A stretch of DNA of 64,000 nt from Escherichia phage LF82-41. The translations under genes and the position numbers were made by a program. Positions 9,313 to 37,484 of this stretch are shown piece after piece. Within the stretch, counting starts at the first letter, position 1. Every line of letters begins with the position of its first letter. The stretch is taken from the sequence record PV660463. One strand, 5' to 3'. Under the pieces are notes generated by a model. It did not search any database. It was not told the origin of the DNA and saw nothing but the letters and a program-made list of their open reading frames with translations.

Positions 9313-10413
9313 TTACGCTGTGAAGATTTTATCCCACATCGCAACAACTGCATCTCGGTTATACTTCTTCCATACTGCTTCAGCACGTTTAACTCGAGCT
9401 TCGTATGTGTCAGTGAATTCTAATACAGCTTTTGTGTAAAGCGCAACTACTTCTTTCTTAGGAGTAGAGGAATCAATTTCTACACGCACAGTATCTGGGT
9501 CGTATTCGAATGTCGCGTGCGGATAATCCTTAAAAACTAACTGAATCACAGGGACACCTTTAGAGATGGCTTCAATAGAACTATTCTCTACCGTACCCGT
9601 GTCAGGACACGTATTGATAAGTGCTTTAGCTGTTTTAAGACGTTCCATGATTTCACTGTGTGGAGCATCAATAATAACAGGATACTTAGCCGGCGGTGCC
9701 CATTTACTAGGACAGTATCCTGCACCATTTTCGCCTAGTGCTTTAATCGCTTCAAGAGCAACATCAGTACGACGCATTTTAGTGTCATAACGTTGTGCAC
9801 TAATAATCAGATCAGTCGCCGGAAGAACTTCAGGTTTATCATTCAAACAAATAACCGGATAATCTTCGGCTTCAAACAACGGATTTGCTCGCCAATAATC
9901 ATAATCAATTTTGCCAGTCAGACCTGAAGTCATATAACAATATTTGCGTTCAAATTCACGGAAGGCTTTAGTAGGAGCATAACTCTTACCACCGTTCTTA
10001 TGAATTTGAATAGTCTGGTCCCAAATTTGAACAATGCCACGAGATACCGGTTCAAATGGTGTTGCCATAAAATTCTTATGAACTTTAGAGAGACCTGCGT
10101 CTTTAATTGCCTGAACGGTTAGTTTGGTCGGTTCCATTGTAACAACGAAATCGTACTCATTAATGCCGGCTAGTTCAACAATCTTACGAGCCATAGTATA
10201 ACTCATACCTAGACTGAATTTAGTCAGATGACCAACAGGATGATGATTAACCTTCCAGTCACCAAACGTGTCATTATCAAAGCCGATATAATCAATATCA
10301 GCACCGATGGACACAAGATATTTCAATACATTTAAATGTACTGCTTCAAGACCACCTTGTACACGTTCTGGGTTAAATGGGACTGCGCGAGATGGGATAA
10401 ACATAACTTTCAT
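9313..10413 (-). CDS. GT-B fold glycosyltransferase (GT4-like), candidate DNA sugar transferase
   Basis: 366 aa; N-terminal MKVMFIPSRAVPFNPERVQGG.E resembles GT4 N-terminus; C-terminal TGTVENSSIEAISKGVPVI resembles EX7E donor-binding motif; occupies the T4 gene 60/mobA slot. Confidence 0.55.
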   Translation of the reverse strand: MKVMFIPSRAVPFNPERVQGGLEAVHLNVLKYLVSIGADIDYIGFDNDTFGDWKVNHHPVGHLTKFSLGMSYTMARKIVELAGINEYDFVVTMEPTKLTVQAIKDAGLSKVHKNFMATPFEPVSRGIVQIWDQTIQIHKNGGKSYAPTKAFREFERKYCYMTSGLTGKIDYDYWRANPLFEAEDYPVICLNDKPEVLPATDLIISAQRYDTKMRRTDVALEAIKALGENGAGYCPSKWAPPAKYPVIIDAPHSEIMERLKTAKALINTCPDTGTVENSSIEAISKGVPVIQLVFKDYPHATFEYDPDTVRVEIDSSTPKKEVVALYTKAVLEFTDTYEARVKRAEAVWKKYNRDAVVAMWDKIFTA

Positions 10414-30933: not shown

Positions 30934-31482
30934 TTAACGAGCCCATTTAATGATTTCTGTAATCAAATTATTACGTTCGCTTGCATTAAATCCTATAACT
31001 TTGTTAGAACCATCATGATTAAGTAATTGATACGTTTGGATTTTGTTATGAATTGCAAACTCTTCAAAATGTGAAATGACTGTATTAAAACCGAATGAAG
31101 ACAAAGTAATAAGGTCGTCTTCAAAACTTTCAGTCATTTCGTTACGTGTTAAAATAATTGTGAACACATCATGGTTTTGGCAAAGACGAACATAATCCTG
31201 TTCATAAACGTCAAGAACCGAGTCCGCATCTTGTCGAATACGTCCATAAACCCAGTTACTAATATATCCACGGTCTAATAGATAAATCTTAGTAGGGTCT
31301 AAATAATTCAACATCGTTTCGAAACAGCCAACTTCATTTCGAGACTTAACATCGAAACGCCCATCAACTGTTCGTTTAGGGAAATCAATCTTTACATATC
31401 TTTCACTAATTTCCATTATGTCATTAATGAAAGTTGTTTTACCAGCATTATCCGGCCCGTCTACTAAAATAATTTTAGCCAT
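30934..31482 (-). CDS. P-loop kinase-like protein (182 aa)
   Basis: Walker A ILVDGPDNAGKTT at N-terminus; sits in T4 beta-gt slot. Confidence 0.55.
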   Translation of the reverse strand: MAKIILVDGPDNAGKTTFINDIMEISERYVKIDFPKRTVDGRFDVKSRNEVGCFETMLNYLDPTKIYLLDRGYISNWVYGRIRQDADSVLDVYEQDYVRLCQNHDVFTIILTRNEMTESFEDDLITLSSFGFNTVISHFEEFAIHNKIQTYQLLNHDGSNKVIGFNASERNNLITEIIKWAR

Positions 31483-31483
31483 T

Positions 31484-32383
31484 TTATTCCTCGATTACGA
31501 CATCTTCGTATTTAGGTATATTATACGGCGAAGAAATTAAAGCATTAAAGTAGATGAACTCACCAAGACCTGGATGGAATACTTCTTCAGGATTTTCGAA
31601 ATATTGAATCTTCGGACGTCCTTTAAGAATTTGATAGTACTCAGTTTTAGTTGGATTAAAAATTCGAATCAGCGCTTCTTCAGGATACTTATTTCTGTCG
31701 AAACTATTATTTGGATCAGTTATATAAAGCGGTTGACCTAATTGAATTGCGCATTCAACAACTTGTTCAAAACGATAGCATGGGTCACTAATTCGAAATG
31801 GATGAAAAATACCATCTAGATGAATAGGAGCCAAATCACCTACAAGACGCTGCATGACGGAAGGACGTATAACTTTCTGCGTTACGATAATCTTATTACC
31901 ATCTGCACCTGCGTTAACCAGCACTTCTTTTTGACGTTCATTCAACACAGTAGTTTGAAGTGAACGATTAACAGACAACATGTCGGTTTTTAAGAATTCA
32001 TCAATATAAAAACGTGGTTTATTAGGGTCTGCAGTGATATTGAAATTGAATTCTACATCAAAAGCGCCGTCATATCCAGTGATATCTGTGATTAGAAAAT
32101 CACAATCATAATAAGCAATTAATGAATCAACCACAAATTCATTTTCAGACCAAAAATATTTACGAGTATTATACGCGTTATCTTTATACCATAATGGAAC
32201 AAACTTAAATTCTGGGAAAAGACGTTCGCATTCTTTAATATCAGATGCATTACGTGGATATGTAATCACATCACCCGGATTAGCACGGTGCAAATGAAGT
32301 TGGAAGTTGCCATCCTTAAGGATAGCATACTGTCCAGTTTCATAAGACCGCATACTCAAGATAGGTACGCGGAAAATAGCCAT
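31484..32383 (-). CDS. hypothetical protein (299 aa), beta-gt slot
   Basis: ORF track; tight packing with neighbours; no motif recognised. Confidence 0.55.
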   Translation of the reverse strand: MAIFRVPILSMRSYETGQYAILKDGNFQLHLHRANPGDVITYPRNASDIKECERLFPEFKFVPLWYKDNAYNTRKYFWSENEFVVDSLIAYYDCDFLITDITGYDGAFDVEFNFNITADPNKPRFYIDEFLKTDMLSVNRSLQTTVLNERQKEVLVNAGADGNKIIVTQKVIRPSVMQRLVGDLAPIHLDGIFHPFRISDPCYRFEQVVECAIQLGQPLYITDPNNSFDRNKYPEEALIRIFNPTKTEYYQILKGRPKIQYFENPEEVFHPGLGEFIYFNALISSPYNIPKYEDVVIEE

Positions 32384-33099
32384 TAGTCAAGGAATCCTTT
32401 AACATAATCAAAATCACGTTCAAACACATGGGCACTTACCATGGTATGAGTATAATCACCAACTTCTACACCACATTCGTTAGCGATATAATGAAGTAAT
32501 TTTCCTTGGAGATAAAAATCCAACTGCATAACAACAGCACAGTTCTGGGAACGCATATGACAGTGGGTATAAAGCTTACCGTCACGAATATAATAAGTCA
32601 CTGAGTCAGTACATGGATATTCAAGCGTTTCGTCCGAATCAAGCAAAGCCTGATCAGAACTTTCTAAAATTTGGAACACAACTCTTCGAGAGTTAGGCTT
32701 CTCTTTAAGTTCTTTTAGAAGAGCCGGTAATTGGGCCGCAATGCGAGGACCATAGAAAGTGTTGAAGTTCGCCGGCAAAGCATCCGATTTTGGTTTAGAA
32801 ATAAATTTAGCGACATTAGGATATGCCTTAAACGCTTCTTCTGCATCAGTACCACCAGAAATCATAAACTTCCAGAAGTCTTCAGCATATTCATAAGAGA
32901 TGCGGTTAATACGTGGGTCGGTCATTTTGAATGATGATGGAGTGTCAACAACTACTGTCATAGACCCAATTTCATTACAACGTCCAATACGAGAATCAGT
33001 TACGAATTCTGGGTTTTCTAAAATTTCACGATTGACTGCTTTAAATGCGGATTGAAAATCTGCGGCTTTGATATATTTCATTGTGTTATGTTTTCCCAT
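32383..33099 (-). CDS. thymidylate synthase-family pyrimidine hydroxymethylase-like enzyme (divergent gp42-like)
   Basis: 238 aa; NSRRVVFQI and EYPCTDSVTYYIRDGKLYTHCHMRSQNCAVV align with T4 gp42 DSRRGIMIY / FMCTNTVQYLIRDKKINAVVNMRSND. Confidence 0.65.
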   Translation of the reverse strand: MGKHNTMKYIKAADFQSAFKAVNREILENPEFVTDSRIGRCNEIGSMTVVVDTPSSFKMTDPRINRISYEYAEDFWKFMISGGTDAEEAFKAYPNVAKFISKPKSDALPANFNTFYGPRIAAQLPALLKELKEKPNSRRVVFQILESSDQALLDSDETLEYPCTDSVTYYIRDGKLYTHCHMRSQNCAVVMQLDFYLQGKLLHYIANECGVEVGDYTHTMVSAHVFERDFDYVKGFLD

Positions 33100-33141: not shown

Positions 33142-33381
33142 TTATTTGAATTTCTTGGCAATGTTGGTATACCGTAAAGCTTCAGCATCGATACTTCCAA
33201 GAACACTGTGAAGAAATGCATCAGCGTAGTATTCCAATCGAACAGGTTCTTTAATCATTTTAGCCGCTTTGGTTTCAAACAGGCCCATAAGGGCCTTTTT
33301 AAGAATTTGTTCGCTGCTGTTAATTTTTATAGTCAAAATCTCTTCGTTAAGTTGGTGGTTAAAAGTTTTTCTAGAAATCAT
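33142..33381 (-). CDS. hypothetical protein (79 aa)
   Basis: ORF track. Confidence 0.45.
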   Translation of the reverse strand: MISRKTFNHQLNEEILTIKINSSEQILKKALMGLFETKAAKMIKEPVRLEYYADAFLHSVLGSIDAEALRYTNIAKKFK

Positions 33382-34538
33382 TCTGGGTACCTCAAAGCGT
33401 CATCAGAGTTAGTTATATCAATAATAGATATAGAGTTTTCTGCTAACCCGTTTTTAGATAACTGACGTTTATAATATCTTTCACAATATGTACACGTCGT
33501 CCCACAGATTTCATTAGCACAATCGAAATCTGGATGTCTGAACCACCTTTTTTCTAAAAAGCCATCTAACAAAGAGGTTTCAATATTTACTGTATGTGAA
33601 AACTCAGTTTCATTTTCAAGAGTGAAAATAGTCTCTAAAGGCTTCCACAGTTCTAACAAATTACCTTCAAACTTTTCAGAAGCGTATGCTTCAAGAACTT
33701 TCAAAATGTAGTCTGTGCTACCTGTACGTCCTGAAACTTTGAATTGAGTGATACCAATATCATTATAAAGTTTCAAATCTTGAGGACGAACAAAACGAGT
33801 TCTCAACCAGTTAAATGGGTCTGTATCACGAGCTTTAATACAGTGCTGCATAGGATACCCATTTAAGGATTTAGCATCATCAGCGGTAACATCAGTACTA
33901 TGGAAAATATAGCAAGAGTCACGATAACTACAATGTGTTGTATACCCTTTACCAGCATTAGAACAGAACTCATTTACAAGAACTTCAAATATTATATTGT
34001 TCTTATTGCAAAACTCTGCTGCACGCTTCAGGAAAGAAACTGAACGGTTCTTATGAATTCCGCAACAGACCTTTTTGATGTTATATTGGTCGTGCAAGTA
34101 TTTGATTTGAGTTACAGCATCGACATGTAGAATTGTTGAAACTTCAATCTCAATATCTTTATTGACTTCACGAACAATTTCCATAACAACAGGGTTAGCG
34201 ATAGTAATACGCCATACGCCTATTGACCAAAGATACTGAACATAATCCTGAATAGCTTTCTTCTTCCACTCAACTAGTTCTCTTTTTGAACCAGGATTTA
34301 TCGTGTTGAGTGTATAGTTAAAGCAAATACCTAATTCGTTACAACGTTTAACGTAGTCTTCTAACATCTTTTTGTCAACGTCAGGAAGCCTAAAATCAGG
34401 TCTGGCTGCTACAAAAGCCATTTCTCTTGTAGAGCCATATACTTCGTTTATCAAGCTATTAGGATAAGTTTTATTGAGCTCTACGATTTTATCAAGAAGA
34501 GCTAAATCAAAATTCGTTCCGATTTTAAAAGTATTCAT
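33378..34538 (-). CDS. Cys-rich protein (386 aa), possible Fe-S/U32-like enzyme
   Basis: C-terminal C-x3-C-x3-C-x2-C (CANEICGTTCTYC); internal EFCSNAGKGYTTHCSY loosely resembles U32 signature; tentative. Confidence 0.5.
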   Translation of the reverse strand: MNTFKIGTNFDLALLDKIVELNKTYPNSLINEVYGSTREMAFVAARPDFRLPDVDKKMLEDYVKRCNELGICFNYTLNTINPGSKRELVEWKKKAIQDYVQYLWSIGVWRITIANPVVMEIVREVNKDIEIEVSTILHVDAVTQIKYLHDQYNIKKVCCGIHKNRSVSFLKRAAEFCNKNNIIFEVLVNEFCSNAGKGYTTHCSYRDSCYIFHSTDVTADDAKSLNGYPMQHCIKARDTDPFNWLRTRFVRPQDLKLYNDIGITQFKVSGRTGSTDYILKVLEAYASEKFEGNLLELWKPLETIFTLENETEFSHTVNIETSLLDGFLEKRWFRHPDFDCANEICGTTCTYCERYYKRQLSKNGLAENSISIIDITNSDDALRYPE

Positions 34539-34595: not shown

Positions 34596-34997
34596 TTATA
34601 GATTCGGTTTATATGATTTAAATGTTTCGAATTCGCCTTTATTCATAAGAGCTTTGAATTCGTCAGGACGCATAGCTTTGTCGTCGATAATCCAATCATA
34701 TACTGGTTTATGTGTTAGCAAATTATGGTACTTCAAACCAATGTTTTCCAAGTTCTGAATCAGACTTGGGAGAATGTCAATTGCTATACGTCCAGGACCT
34801 ACTGACTTCATACCGCGAGCAGTGTAAAGCGTTATGGTATGCCCTGCATCATACAGGGCATTAATGGCGGTCACCATTTCGACGTCTGGTTTGAAGTTCA
34901 CGTAATCACGATTGTTATTCCACTCTGTTATACAATCATCGACATCAAAACAAAGATTAAGCATGTTTTCTACACGGTGCATTAGATTCGTTCCCAT
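34596..34997 (-). CDS. HAD-superfamily phosphatase-like protein (133 aa)
   Basis: N-terminal FDVDDCIT resembles HAD motif I. Confidence 0.5.
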   Translation of the reverse strand: MGTNLMHRVENMLNLCFDVDDCITEWNNNRDYVNFKPDVEMVTAINALYDAGHTITLYTARGMKSVGPGRIAIDILPSLIQNLENIGLKYHNLLTHKPVYDWIIDDKAMRPDEFKALMNKGEFETFKSYKPNL

Positions 34998-36667
34998 TGA
35001 TGAGTGATATCGCCACCGATTGGACGATAAGAAACACCAGTTTCTTTATCAGTTAGTACCCATTTACCAGGATTTTTTGTAATCAGAGTAGCCGTTACAG
35101 GTTCTGCTACGTCATAACTAATAGAGCCGTCTTGAAGTACACGGCCCATGTTATGTAATTGCTTAGTCAGAAGTTCCATACCTTTATAATATGCGGCTAC
35201 CGCTTTAAGTGGATTATTCTTGAAATAACCACCTAATGCAATCCAGATAATTGCTACAGCCAAATGATGATACTCGTTAAACGAACTCATCTTTCCATAT
35301 TTGTAAACTAATGGATTGATGTTAATAGTCACATTACAAGTTGTTTCATCAATAGTAAACTGTCCCCAGGTCGGATTAGCATTGAATTCATCATAACCTG
35401 AAACAGCATAAAGCACTTTAGCTTCATCATATAATTTTGGCCCGTAAATCTTGGTTTCACCAAAATATCCACGAGGGTCGATAAACTTGACTTCGCCGTT
35501 ATCAGTAATCATAGTATTACTGAAGTTTGGGTCGCCGTGAATAACAGAGTACTGTCCCTGAGAACGGTTATGATAACGAATAAGATGTTCTAAAGCTTGT
35601 TTCAACATTGGCTTCAGACGTCCAATCTTAGTGTAGTTCACGTGTGTGATTTTACCAAATGAATCAATCAATGGCTGAATGCTTTCACAACGATCAATAA
35701 CTTTCGTATAGAACTCTTTAGTGAAATCACGGCGAACAGTTTCAGGACTTACAAAATAAGTGTCTGTGCTGAATTTCAGTGCATCTAAAATTGCATCAAC
35801 AATTTGTGGACGAGCAAGACTTGATTTGGATTTAATATATTCAAATGCCGGCTTACCTTTAATACGTTCCATTTCAAAATTATTTTCATTTACCGAAACT
35901 AACTGTGGAACTGAATCTGATTTCACTTTCAAATACCACGAAATCTCATCTTTCTGAAGAGCCCGTCCCTGTTCGGTTAATGCGAATTTAGTTACAGTTT
36001 CTTCACCAATTTCAACTGCATTAAAACTACGATTAAGTTCACGAACTTCATGAGCTTTTTCAAGTTTAGGCATATCACCTAAATCAATTATATTCATAAG
36101 CTCTGATTTATTGAATGCGCCGCTGTAAAGGAATTCTACGAAATCACGTCCTTTGCAGTATTCATGAATTTCCTCATCAGTAGAACCCATATAGAATTCC
36201 CAGTCTTTGAACTGATAAATTCCTACAACATTACCACCTGTTGAACCTACGTTAGTGATATTTTCACCGTCGAAATTATATCGACATTCGTCACCCTTAA
36301 CATAGATTGCGTTAACATTCCAAGACCATGAACCAAAATCAGGAATAATATCGCACCAGTTAACAACTACGTTATGGCCGTCTAAATCTTTATGTAATTT
36401 AGCAAGAGCATAAGCAGAACCATACGCTTCATCAACTGTACGAATAGTCACATTGAACCCTTCTTGCTCACAATAAGCTCGAACGGTTTCAGCAAATTTT
36501 GAATGAACTACTACAATAATTTCATCTGCGCCAAGGTCAGAATAAATTGTATACAAATTGCTCAGAATAGTGTCTTGTTTATAGTTAACAAGCACCTTAG
36601 GAATATGGTGAGTAATTGGATATAAACGAGTTGCTAATCCAGCACCAAGAATAACAGCTTTTTTCAT
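34982..36667 (-). CDS. bifunctional sugar-phosphate nucleotidyltransferase / APH-like kinase
   Basis: 561 aa; N-terminal MKKAVILGAGLATRLYP...PKVLV NTP-transferase signature; C-terminal VIHGDPNFSNTMITDNGEVKFIDPRGYFG kinase motif. Confidence 0.65.
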   Translation of the reverse strand: MKKAVILGAGLATRLYPITHHIPKVLVNYKQDTILSNLYTIYSDLGADEIIVVVHSKFAETVRAYCEQEGFNVTIRTVDEAYGSAYALAKLHKDLDGHNVVVNWCDIIPDFGSWSWNVNAIYVKGDECRYNFDGENITNVGSTGGNVVGIYQFKDWEFYMGSTDEEIHEYCKGRDFVEFLYSGAFNKSELMNIIDLGDMPKLEKAHEVRELNRSFNAVEIGEETVTKFALTEQGRALQKDEISWYLKVKSDSVPQLVSVNENNFEMERIKGKPAFEYIKSKSSLARPQIVDAILDALKFSTDTYFVSPETVRRDFTKEFYTKVIDRCESIQPLIDSFGKITHVNYTKIGRLKPMLKQALEHLIRYHNRSQGQYSVIHGDPNFSNTMITDNGEVKFIDPRGYFGETKIYGPKLYDEAKVLYAVSGYDEFNANPTWGQFTIDETTCNVTININPLVYKYGKMSSFNEYHHLAVAIIWIALGGYFKNNPLKAVAAYYKGMELLTKQLHNMGRVLQDGSISYDVAEPVTATLITKNPGKWVLTDKETGVSYRPIGGDITHQWERI

Positions 36668-36708: not shown

Positions 36709-36852
36709 CTAGTTAAAGCATTCATACTTTGCCTGTAGACCAATCATAATCCATCCAATTACAAGTGTTGGAATCATTACCGGAGCCGTTAAGCTCCAGT
36801 AGATAGTCATGACAAGCATCAATAGTAAAAGTCCTATTGTTATTGCTTTCAT
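36709..36852 (-). CDS. small membrane protein (47 aa)
   Basis: Manual translation MKAITIGLLLLMLVMTIYWSLTAPVMIPTLVIGWIMIGLQAKYECFN; ATGA overlap with SIS gene stop. Confidence 0.35.
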   Translation of the reverse strand: MKAITIGLLLLMLVMTIYWSLTAPVMIPTLVIGWIMIGLQAKYECFN

Positions 36853-37484
36853 TGCTCGCCTCGTAACATGGCACCTAGTGCACCGCCTGGATGGAACTTA
36901 AGGAAATCATTAGAGGTAAATCCACGTTCAGATGAAAGGTTGATAGCGAACGTATCGATAAGCGCTAACAACAATGTAGTAGACATCGTCGGAGCTAAAG
37001 AGTTCTCGTCAACTTCTACCGCGATACCGGTACAGAACGTATAATCAAAAAGAGCTTCGTATTCTTGTGGAATGTCAGGGTTACAATGTAACAGAATCTG
37101 TTTAACCTGAGGACGAATCATACGAAGATGTTTAGCAACACCTATCATTTCTTCAGTCTTACCGGAACGACTGATGTGAACTAATACATCATTAGGTGCA
37201 ATAAATCCTGCGTCACCATGAGAATAATGCCCAGTGTTCAAATACATGCTAGGAATACCTAGTGAAGCAAATGTCTCAGAAGCTTTAGTTGCAATATTAG
37301 CATTCTTACCAACACCTGTAATAATTACTCGGCTTTCATAATTACTCAGTCCAGGGCGTCGAAGAGTTTCTAGAATAGCATTATAACGAGCAGGGTTTTG
37401 ACTAATTACTTTGGCCATAGCGGCCAAAGAAGAAGCTTGTTTTATGATTGCGTCAATAGCGATAGTAATAGGAGTAGTTTTCAT
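36849..37484 (-). CDS. SIS-domain sugar-phosphate isomerase (arabinose-5-phosphate isomerase-like)
   Basis: 211 aa; SIS features; C-terminal FHPGGALG resembles KdsD/KpsF-type API motif. Confidence 0.6.
   Translation of the reverse strand: MKTTPITIAIDAIIKQASSLAAMAKVISQNPARYNAILETLRRPGLSNYESRVIITGVGKNANIATKASETFASLGIPSMYLNTGHYSHGDAGFIAPNDVLVHISRSGKTEEMIGVAKHLRMIRPQVKQILLHCNPDIPQEYEALFDYTFCTGIAVEVDENSLAPTMSTTLLLALIDTFAINLSSERGFTSNDFLKFHPGGALGAMLRGEQ

Follow-up and report, generated by a model that had tools for sequence, protein, structure and literature searches.

A putative first arabinosyltransferase and a thymidylate-kinase-fold kinase in the 5-hydroxycytosine arabinosylation module of Escherichia phage LF82-41

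Two open reading frames (ORFs), ORF299 and ORF182, lie next to uvsX in a 64,000-nucleotide (nt) stretch of Escherichia phage LF82-41 (sequence record PV660463; hereafter the window, meaning the whole stretch), and probably encode the first arabinosyltransferase and the deoxynucleoside monophosphate (dNMP) kinase, respectively, in the coupled core of the arabinosyl-5-hydroxycytosine pathway. The phage is T4-like, belongs to the genus Mosigvirus and shares about 98% identity with RB69 and Bas47; over its 6.8-kilobase (kb) uvsX-to-gene 43 stretch, it matches many phages of Escherichia and Shigella at 97.5-98.0% identity, among them Bas47 (AlbertHofmann), phiC120 and Shf125875. Arabinose in RB69 DNA, and an eight-gene module without T4 homologues, were noted by Thomas et al. 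(2018; PMC6024577), and RB69 gp45 and gp46:47 appear in the arabinosyl-5-hydroxycytosine pathway of Lee et al. (NAR 2026) under the names 'nucleotide kinase' and 'arabinosyltransferase 1', the same putative roles as those given here. As the results match the published RB69 genes almost number for number, the finding is a correct rediscovery of genes published in 2018-2026 for near-identical phages.

At the level of single genes, ORF182 is 98.4% identical to RB69ORF045c and is a direct orthologue, with no difference, of the nucleotide kinases of the 5-hydroxycytosine (5hoC) clusters, namely RB69 gp45, DLP3 gp78 and RL38J1 gp214 (PHROG 761). ORF299 corresponds to RB69 ORF047c plus ORF046c (97.9% DNA identity to the RB69 block), and RB69 gp46:47, DLP3 gp79 and Thanatos TH1_063 (PHROG 3891) show no substantive difference from it apart from the split in the RB69 record. 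In that record (GenBank AY303349.1, 24597-25497; L111:1099-1999) one extra T at codon ~182 splits the ORF299 orthologue, while the copy in the window is intact; the extra T agrees with the statement of Lee et al. that there is a sequencing error, so that the division into ORF047c and ORF046c is artificial. Identity of ORF299 is 47.5% to Thanatos TH1_063 and about 46% to proteins of Acinetobacter phages.

All genes of the uvsX-to-gene 43 stretch lie on the minus strand (Table 1), and from 43 towards uvsX they encode a SIS isomerase, a 47-amino-acid (aa) ORF, a 561-aa nucleotidyltransferase/kinase, a 133-aa HAD-like protein, a 386-aa U32 protein, a 79-aa ORF, a 238-aa ThyA homologue, ORF299 and ORF182, the last two thus standing between uvsX and the ThyA homologue that is the counterpart of gene 42. 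A sequence-only reading of the window had described two tightly coupled ORFs, separated by 1 nt, in the uvsX-proximal slot in place of beta-glucosyltransferase. Both ORFs are present exactly where it had set them, and the T4 order (uvsX-segA-beta-gt-42-imm-imm.1-43) does have segA and beta-gt at the place which ORF182 and ORF299 take. The coupling is tighter than had been described: at the junction ...GAGGAATAA-A-ATGGCT... the ORF299 stop codon is followed by a single base and the ORF182 start codon, with a GAGGAA Shine-Dalgarno sequence for ORF182 lying within the 3' end of ORF299, and the ORF299 start codon in turn overlaps the stop codon of the upstream ThyA homologue (TAATG), hence three genes rather than two are translationally coupled. 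Promoter and terminator sites were no more common in a scan of the sequence than in shuffled sequence, and for this reason no conclusions on transcription units were drawn.

The decorated base is 5-hydroxycytosine rather than hydroxymethylcytosine, since D169N, the signature of 5-hydroxy-deoxycytidine monophosphate (5-hydroxy-dCMP) synthases, is found in the neighbouring ThyA homologue (PMC13326640). Relative to Escherichia coli ThyA it has both D169N and N177D, whereas D169 is kept by T4 gp42, and it is near-identical to PDB entries 9iqc, 9ir2 and 9iqu, of which 9iqc is the solved HY126 enzyme. The activity of its RB69 orthologue, gp48, as a 5-hydroxy-dCMP synthase was shown experimentally (PMC13326640).

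Fold comparison was the sole informative route to the identity of ORF299, as sequence methods gave nothing. No match was obtained in Pfam, in NCBIfam, with phmmer against the PDB or in a PDB profile search, and the only sequence-level match is PHROG 3891 ('unknown function'; 1.1e-155 over residues 1-298), which bears out the earlier remark that the second ORF has no recognisable motif. Comparison by hhalign with E. coli WaaG and with a GT4-like 366-aa protein of the window gave probabilities below 1%, and there is no sequence relationship to the alpha- and beta-glucosyltransferases of T4 (BLASTP E 7.8 to beta-gt). Structure prediction, which the sequence-only reading had proposed as a check, gave an AlphaFold2 model (59 homologues in the alignment; predicted local distance difference test (pLDDT) 94.7) in which two Rossmann-like domains with an inter-domain cleft form a predicted GT-B fold. 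The motifs FPFRISD, TDPN and HPG are invariant in the ORF299 family, none of which can be mapped onto GT4 motifs, and neither sequence similarity to CAZy family GT4 (Glycos_transf_1) nor its EX7E-type donor motif was found. The marks of a sugar-1-phosphate nucleotidyltransferase, namely a GT-A-like fold and an N-terminal motif of the G-x-G-x-R-L type, are likewise absent from ORF299, and a pyrophosphorylase was rejected because the fold is the wrong one.

The earlier suggestion that the second ORF might be a second transferase or a modification-associated factor holds in so far as the predicted fold and the pathway point to a transferase, but its rank has to be revised, as ORF299 most likely acts first, next to the base, and the 366-aa ORF, about 21 kb from the module, is the accessory second transferase. 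The 366-aa protein matches the PDB entries 9iqz/9ir0 'phage HY126 glycosyltransferase' with a phmmer E-value of 5.4e-247, being near-identical to 9iqz, and it occurs in only 211 phage records, essentially of Mosigvirus and Acinetobacter phages, which are groups reported to be di- or tri-arabinosylated. Phages of the Klebsiella, Serratia, Enterobacter, Proteus, Yersinia, Shewanella and Dhakavirus types carry ORF299 and ORF182 and lack the 366-aa transferase. The absence of this enzyme from many ORF299-bearing groups, together with an ORF299 orthologue in Thanatos, which is reported to be mono-arabinosylated with a single transferase (PMC13326640), supports the view, at the level of gene content, that the 366-aa transferase is accessory and ORF299 base-proximal.

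For ORF182, the sequence-only reading had taken a Walker A motif as a sign of a nucleotide or sugar kinase. The motif (GPDNAGKTT, residues 9-17; N-terminus MAKIILVDGPDNAGKTT) is no chance match, because G9, D11, N12, G14, K15 and T16 are invariant across 24 homologues down to 42% identity, and the D70-R71 motif and R113 are invariant in the same set. The model of ORF182 predicts a P-loop nucleoside monophosphate kinase core of thymidylate kinase (Tmk)-type topology, and the structural neighbours are thymidylate kinases, as for RB69 gp45. The nucleotide kinase part of the suggestion has thus been retained, while a sugar kinase was rejected because the 561-aa protein already accounts for the arabinose-phosphate kinase step. 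However, no PF02223 match was found for ORF182 in Pfam at E <= 0.1, its orthologues (PHROG 761 family) reach PF02223 scores of up to 24.3 bits, below the threshold of 27, and in an hhalign comparison of the ORF182 family with E. coli Tmk the P-loop alone was aligned. As the curated thresholds are failed and only the P-loop aligns, ORF182 is a divergent kinase with a thymidylate-kinase fold and not a bona fide Tmk, differing from cellular and poxviral Tmk (PF02223, TIGR00041), with which it shares the fold, by these failed thresholds, by its context and by an acidic LID-like segment. In this segment F120, D122 and D123 are invariant and R113 is the single invariant arginine nearby; residues 121-130 are modelled with low confidence (pLDDT 61). 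The genomic context, a cytosine-specific synthase with D169N and N177D, argues for a cytosine derivative rather than thymidylate as the substrate. ORF182, as a putative dNMP kinase, and the T4 gp1-type dNMP kinase (gp159 in RB69) are both phage P-loop dNMP kinases, yet no homology of ORF182 to the gp1 family (1dek) was found.

The two genes are linked throughout. By tblastn over 50,697 phage records, ORF299 was found in 348 and ORF182 in 343, with nearly the same breakdown by genus (ORF299/ORF182: Escherichia 176/176, Acinetobacter 57/57, Klebsiella 26/25, Shigella 15/15). An ORF182 homologue is present in 45 of the 46 viral loci that contain a close relative of ORF299, and the one locus without it lies on a contig that breaks off at the stop codon of the transferase. 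The kinase lies directly downstream of the transferase in 34 of these loci (gap -26 to +19 nt) and upstream in the same cluster in the other 11 (Dhakavirus, Klebsiella and Proteus types), the order of the Dhakavirus type being kinase, synthase, transferase, and D169N is present in every ThyA homologue associated with ORF299-type loci. In Thanatos, the ThyA homologue TH1_062 stands in a row with the ORF299 orthologue TH1_063 (L058:6995-7897), the ORF182 orthologue TH1_064, which is 44% identical to ORF182 and adjoins TH1_063 with a 4-nt overlap, and a U32-like gene (L058:8462-9598).

The order synthase, transferase, kinase is also kept on environmental phage contigs of 122 kb and 355 kb, at 28-38% identity (28-30% for the kinase). 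An environmental clade from IMG/VR (L031-L044; contigs of up to 135 kb) at ~38% identity to ORF299 retains the synthase, the ORF299-like gene and the kinase, and no gene for a SIS isomerase, a nucleotidyltransferase/kinase or a HAD protein was found within 8 kb, so that the core also exists where SIS and nucleotidyltransferase genes are missing; this clade may use a host nucleotide-sugar instead of arabinose. A search anchored on the synthase yielded eight further loci with a D169N synthase and no ORF299-family gene (including L090:5494-9300, L094:9995-13744, L096:9995-14724 and L106:9989-12605), in which a Tmk-like kinase is found one to two genes downstream, the layout being synthase, an unannotatable protein of 430-448 aa, Tmk-like kinase and an NAD-dependent sugar epimerase/dehydratase. 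Such modules probably decorate 5-hydroxycytosine with a different sugar by means of a different or extremely diverged transferase. The tie of the kinase to the synthase is therefore at least as close as its tie to the ORF299-type transferase. The unannotatable protein of L090 contains '...FGNRISD...', which is reminiscent of FPFRISD of ORF299; no significant relationship was seen by hhalign. Judged from sequence, the D169N synthase, the ORF299-type transferase and the kinase are a conserved, sugar-independent three-gene core, which can be followed down to about 30% identity.

This linkage bears on the view that ORF182 is unrelated to the modification and is an ordinary deoxythymidine monophosphate (dTMP) kinase, another P-loop protein for housekeeping or host takeover, or a sugar kinase, which is very improbable: the syntenic co-occurrence with the D169N synthase and the transferase is near-perfect in phage groups as distant as 28% identity, the T4 regions examined lack the gene, another protein is already credited with the arabinose-phosphate kinase step, and the score against the dTMP-kinase equivalog is 16.9 bits where the cutoff is 83. 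The sequence-only reading had itself named homology to unrelated host-takeover proteins, or presence in phages known to carry only glucosyl-hydroxymethylcytosine, as what would speak against it; no host-takeover homology was found for either ORF, and there are no homologues in the two stretches of T4 examined, including its uvsX-43 slot. ORF182, like ORF299, shows no similarity to alpha-gt or beta-gt of T4.

In the pathway that we consider probable, the ThyA homologue would make 5-hydroxy-dCMP, and the SIS, nucleotidyltransferase/kinase and HAD genes would make uridine diphosphate (UDP)-arabinofuranose, steps that have been shown elsewhere. ORF182, as suggested by its fold, motifs and linkage, would be the cognate pyrimidine dNMP kinase, converting 5-hydroxy-dCMP or a derivative to the diphosphate towards the deoxynucleoside triphosphate pool. 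On the strength of its fold and distribution and of Thanatos, ORF299 would use UDP-arabinofuranose as the donor and attach the first arabinofuranose, in alpha linkage, to the 5-hydroxyl of 5-hydroxycytosine, most likely in newly replicated DNA; the 366-aa transferase would then add the second arabinose on DNA. Thus, ORF299 would correspond to T4 beta-glucosyltransferase in function and position; in sequence the two are not homologous, and the analogy is confined to position and fold class. At 299 aa it is smaller than the T4 beta- and alpha-glucosyltransferases (351 and 400 aa, respectively), more acidic and without detectable sequence similarity to them, and whereas these enzymes use hydroxymethylcytosine and glucose, ORF299 would use 5-hydroxycytosine and arabinofuranose (PMC13326640).

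Several points weigh against this assignment. No CAZy-type family could be linked to ORF299 at the sequence level by Pfam, PDB sequence and profile searches or hhalign, ORF182 fails the curated threshold of TIGR00041 (16.9 bits, cutoff 83.25), and no biochemical activity of an ORF299- or ORF182-type protein as proposed here was found in the literature searched. Individual DLP3 transferases, including gp79, gave no arabinosylation of 5hoC-DNA (Lee et al., data not shown in that paper), and the same authors cannot tell whether the mononucleotide or the DNA receives the first sugar. It was further shown by Lee et al. that RB69 gp159 phosphorylates 5-hydroxy-dCMP and suffices for its incorporation in E. 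coli, so the need for ORF182 is unexplained. Finally, Thanatos TH1_063 was reported to make UDP-xylose from uridine triphosphate (UTP) and xylose-1-phosphate and not to glycosylate DNA (PMC12838424); the latter negative is tempered by the fact that the acceptors in the DNA assay lacked a 5-hydroxyl.

From the activity of TH1_063, it could be argued that ORF299 is not a base transferase at all and instead processes UDP-pentose, as a UDP-sugar pyrophosphorylase or an epimerase-like GT-B enzyme, and the best Foldseek E-values of ORF299 are indeed to UDP-GlcNAc 2-epimerases, which have a GT-B fold too. We regard this as improbable, as a pyrophosphorylase fits the GT-B fold poorly and a genuine nucleotidyltransferase is already present in the module. 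The UDP-xylose activity of TH1_063 is likewise at odds both with the GT-B fold of the protein and with the fact that its cluster already holds a genuine nucleotidyltransferase (TH1_060); a host contaminant or a side reaction might account for it and would need to be ruled out.

The redundancy with gp159 leads to the speculation that the first sugar is added before replication, in which case ORF299 would arabinosylate free 5-hydroxy-dCMP, ORF182 would be a dedicated kinase for arabinosyl-5-hydroxy-dCMP, too bulky for the general dNMP kinase, and the polymerase would incorporate arabinosyl-5-hydroxy-deoxycytidine triphosphate, so that only the second sugar would be added on DNA. The order synthase-transferase-kinase with overlapping or 1-nt junctions would then mirror the order of reactions, 5-hydroxy-dCMP is already covered by gp159, the DLP3 orthologue is inactive on 5hoC-DNA with the question left open by its authors, and ORF299 is a minimal GT-B protein from an acidic family (median isoelectric point (pI) 5.1, net charge -11), in contrast to T4 beta-glucosyltransferase (pI 9.05). 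However, 5-hydroxydeoxycytidine enters DNA when the synthase and gp159 alone are expressed, and therefore unglycosylated 5hoC would reach DNA anyway and need a transferase acting at the DNA level. The kinase also tracks the D169N synthase where no ORF299-type transferase exists, the Dhakavirus-type order does not follow the supposed reaction order, and little weight can be put on charge: pI and net charge do not discriminate between a DNA and a nucleotide acceptor, because T4 alpha-glucosyltransferase is itself mildly acidic (pI 6.1). To our knowledge, all phage DNA glycosylations characterised so far are post-replicative, and this would be the first at the precursor level. Addition before replication is rather unlikely on this balance, but if true, it would account for the conservation of a second, Tmk-fold kinase beside the transferase in very diverse phages.

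The pathway, in which we place ORF299 as the transferase that probably acts on DNA, lets RB69-like phages replace all cytosine by arabinosylated 5-hydroxycytosine, by which many restriction enzymes are blocked, and the modification has been reported to protect against type I CRISPR-Cas (PMC13216743). DNA arabinosylation is relevant to phage therapy and phage engineering. Since the pathway was published in 2025-2026, finding its genes in another Mosigvirus is routine annotation; the core sharpens two questions, namely why a second Tmk-like kinase stands beside the transferase and whether the first sugar is placed on the nucleotide or on DNA, and the comparison points out the synthase, the transferase and the kinase as the genes to test.

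Table 1. Features of the arabinosylation module and the second transferase in the window (RB69 orthologues and best matches where given).
Feature	Position	Strand	Description
ORF182	30934-31482	-	182 aa; thymidylate-kinase-fold P-loop nucleotide kinase; RB69 gp45 orthologue
ORF299	31484-32383	-	299 aa; GT-B-fold putative first (base-proximal) 5-hydroxycytosine arabinosyltransferase; orthologue of RB69 gp46:47, DLP3 gp79 and Thanatos TH1_063
ThyA homologue	32383-33099	-	238 aa; 5-hydroxy-dCMP synthase; Pfam Thymidylat_synt 2.4e-15
79-aa ORF	33142-33381	-	PHROG 8601 at 2.9e-48; 4-nt overlap with the stop of the U32 gene
U32-family protein	33378-34538	-	386 aa; RB69 gp50 orthologue; Pfam Peptidase_U32 7e-11; weak NCBIfam match UbiU 9e-4
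HAD-like phosphatase	34596-34997	-	133 aa; AfhF / RB69 gp51 orthologue; PHROG 1238 at 5e-43
Bifunctional nucleotidyltransferase and kinase	34982-36667	-	561 aa; AfhE / RB69 gp52:53 orthologue; Pfam NTP_transferase 7.5e-10; APH-like kinase matches; PHROG 4098
47-aa ORF	36709-36852	-	strongly hydrophobic, membrane-peptide-like
SIS-domain arabinose-5-phosphate isomerase	36849-37484	-	RB69 gp55 orthologue; Pfam SIS 9.6e-10; PHROG 5670 'arabinose 5-phosphate isomerase' 2.6e-116
Second arabinosyltransferase, GT4-like	9313-10413	-	366 aa; RB69 gp3 / ORF003c orthologue

Among the neighbouring genes, the AfhE-type protein of 561 aa acts as a sugar-1-phosphate nucleotidyltransferase/kinase leading to UDP-arabinofuranose, and the HAD-like protein has the role of an arabinose-1,5-bisphosphate 5-phosphatase (both as cited in PMC13326640). 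A Flavodoxin_2 gene, resembling NAD(P)H-dependent flavin reductases, was seen near a D169N ThyA gene in two distant environmental contigs, adjacent to it in L003 (6739-7293) and ~6 kb upstream in L002 (1-523), in keeping with reports that 5-hydroxy-dCMP synthases depend on flavin; the module of the window phage contains no such gene.

The U32 gene is present in loci of the enterobacterial type and in Thanatos and is missing from those of the Acinetobacter, Pseudomonas and Dhakavirus types. In L050 and L052, where no ThyA homologue lies within 8 kb, distant ORF299-like genes directly adjoin a U32 homologue. The U32 family includes oxygen-independent hydroxylases, such as RlhA, which forms 5-hydroxycytidine in ribosomal RNA, TrhP and UbiU/UbiV. 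The U32 protein of the module might accordingly provide an oxygen-independent route to 5-hydroxycytosine that backs up the oxygen-dependent flavin synthase; it was labelled 'sugar or heterocycle reductase' by Lee et al. (NAR 2026). Both the 47-aa and the 79-aa ORF are annotated genes in Bas47, and homologues of the latter occur in some related loci.

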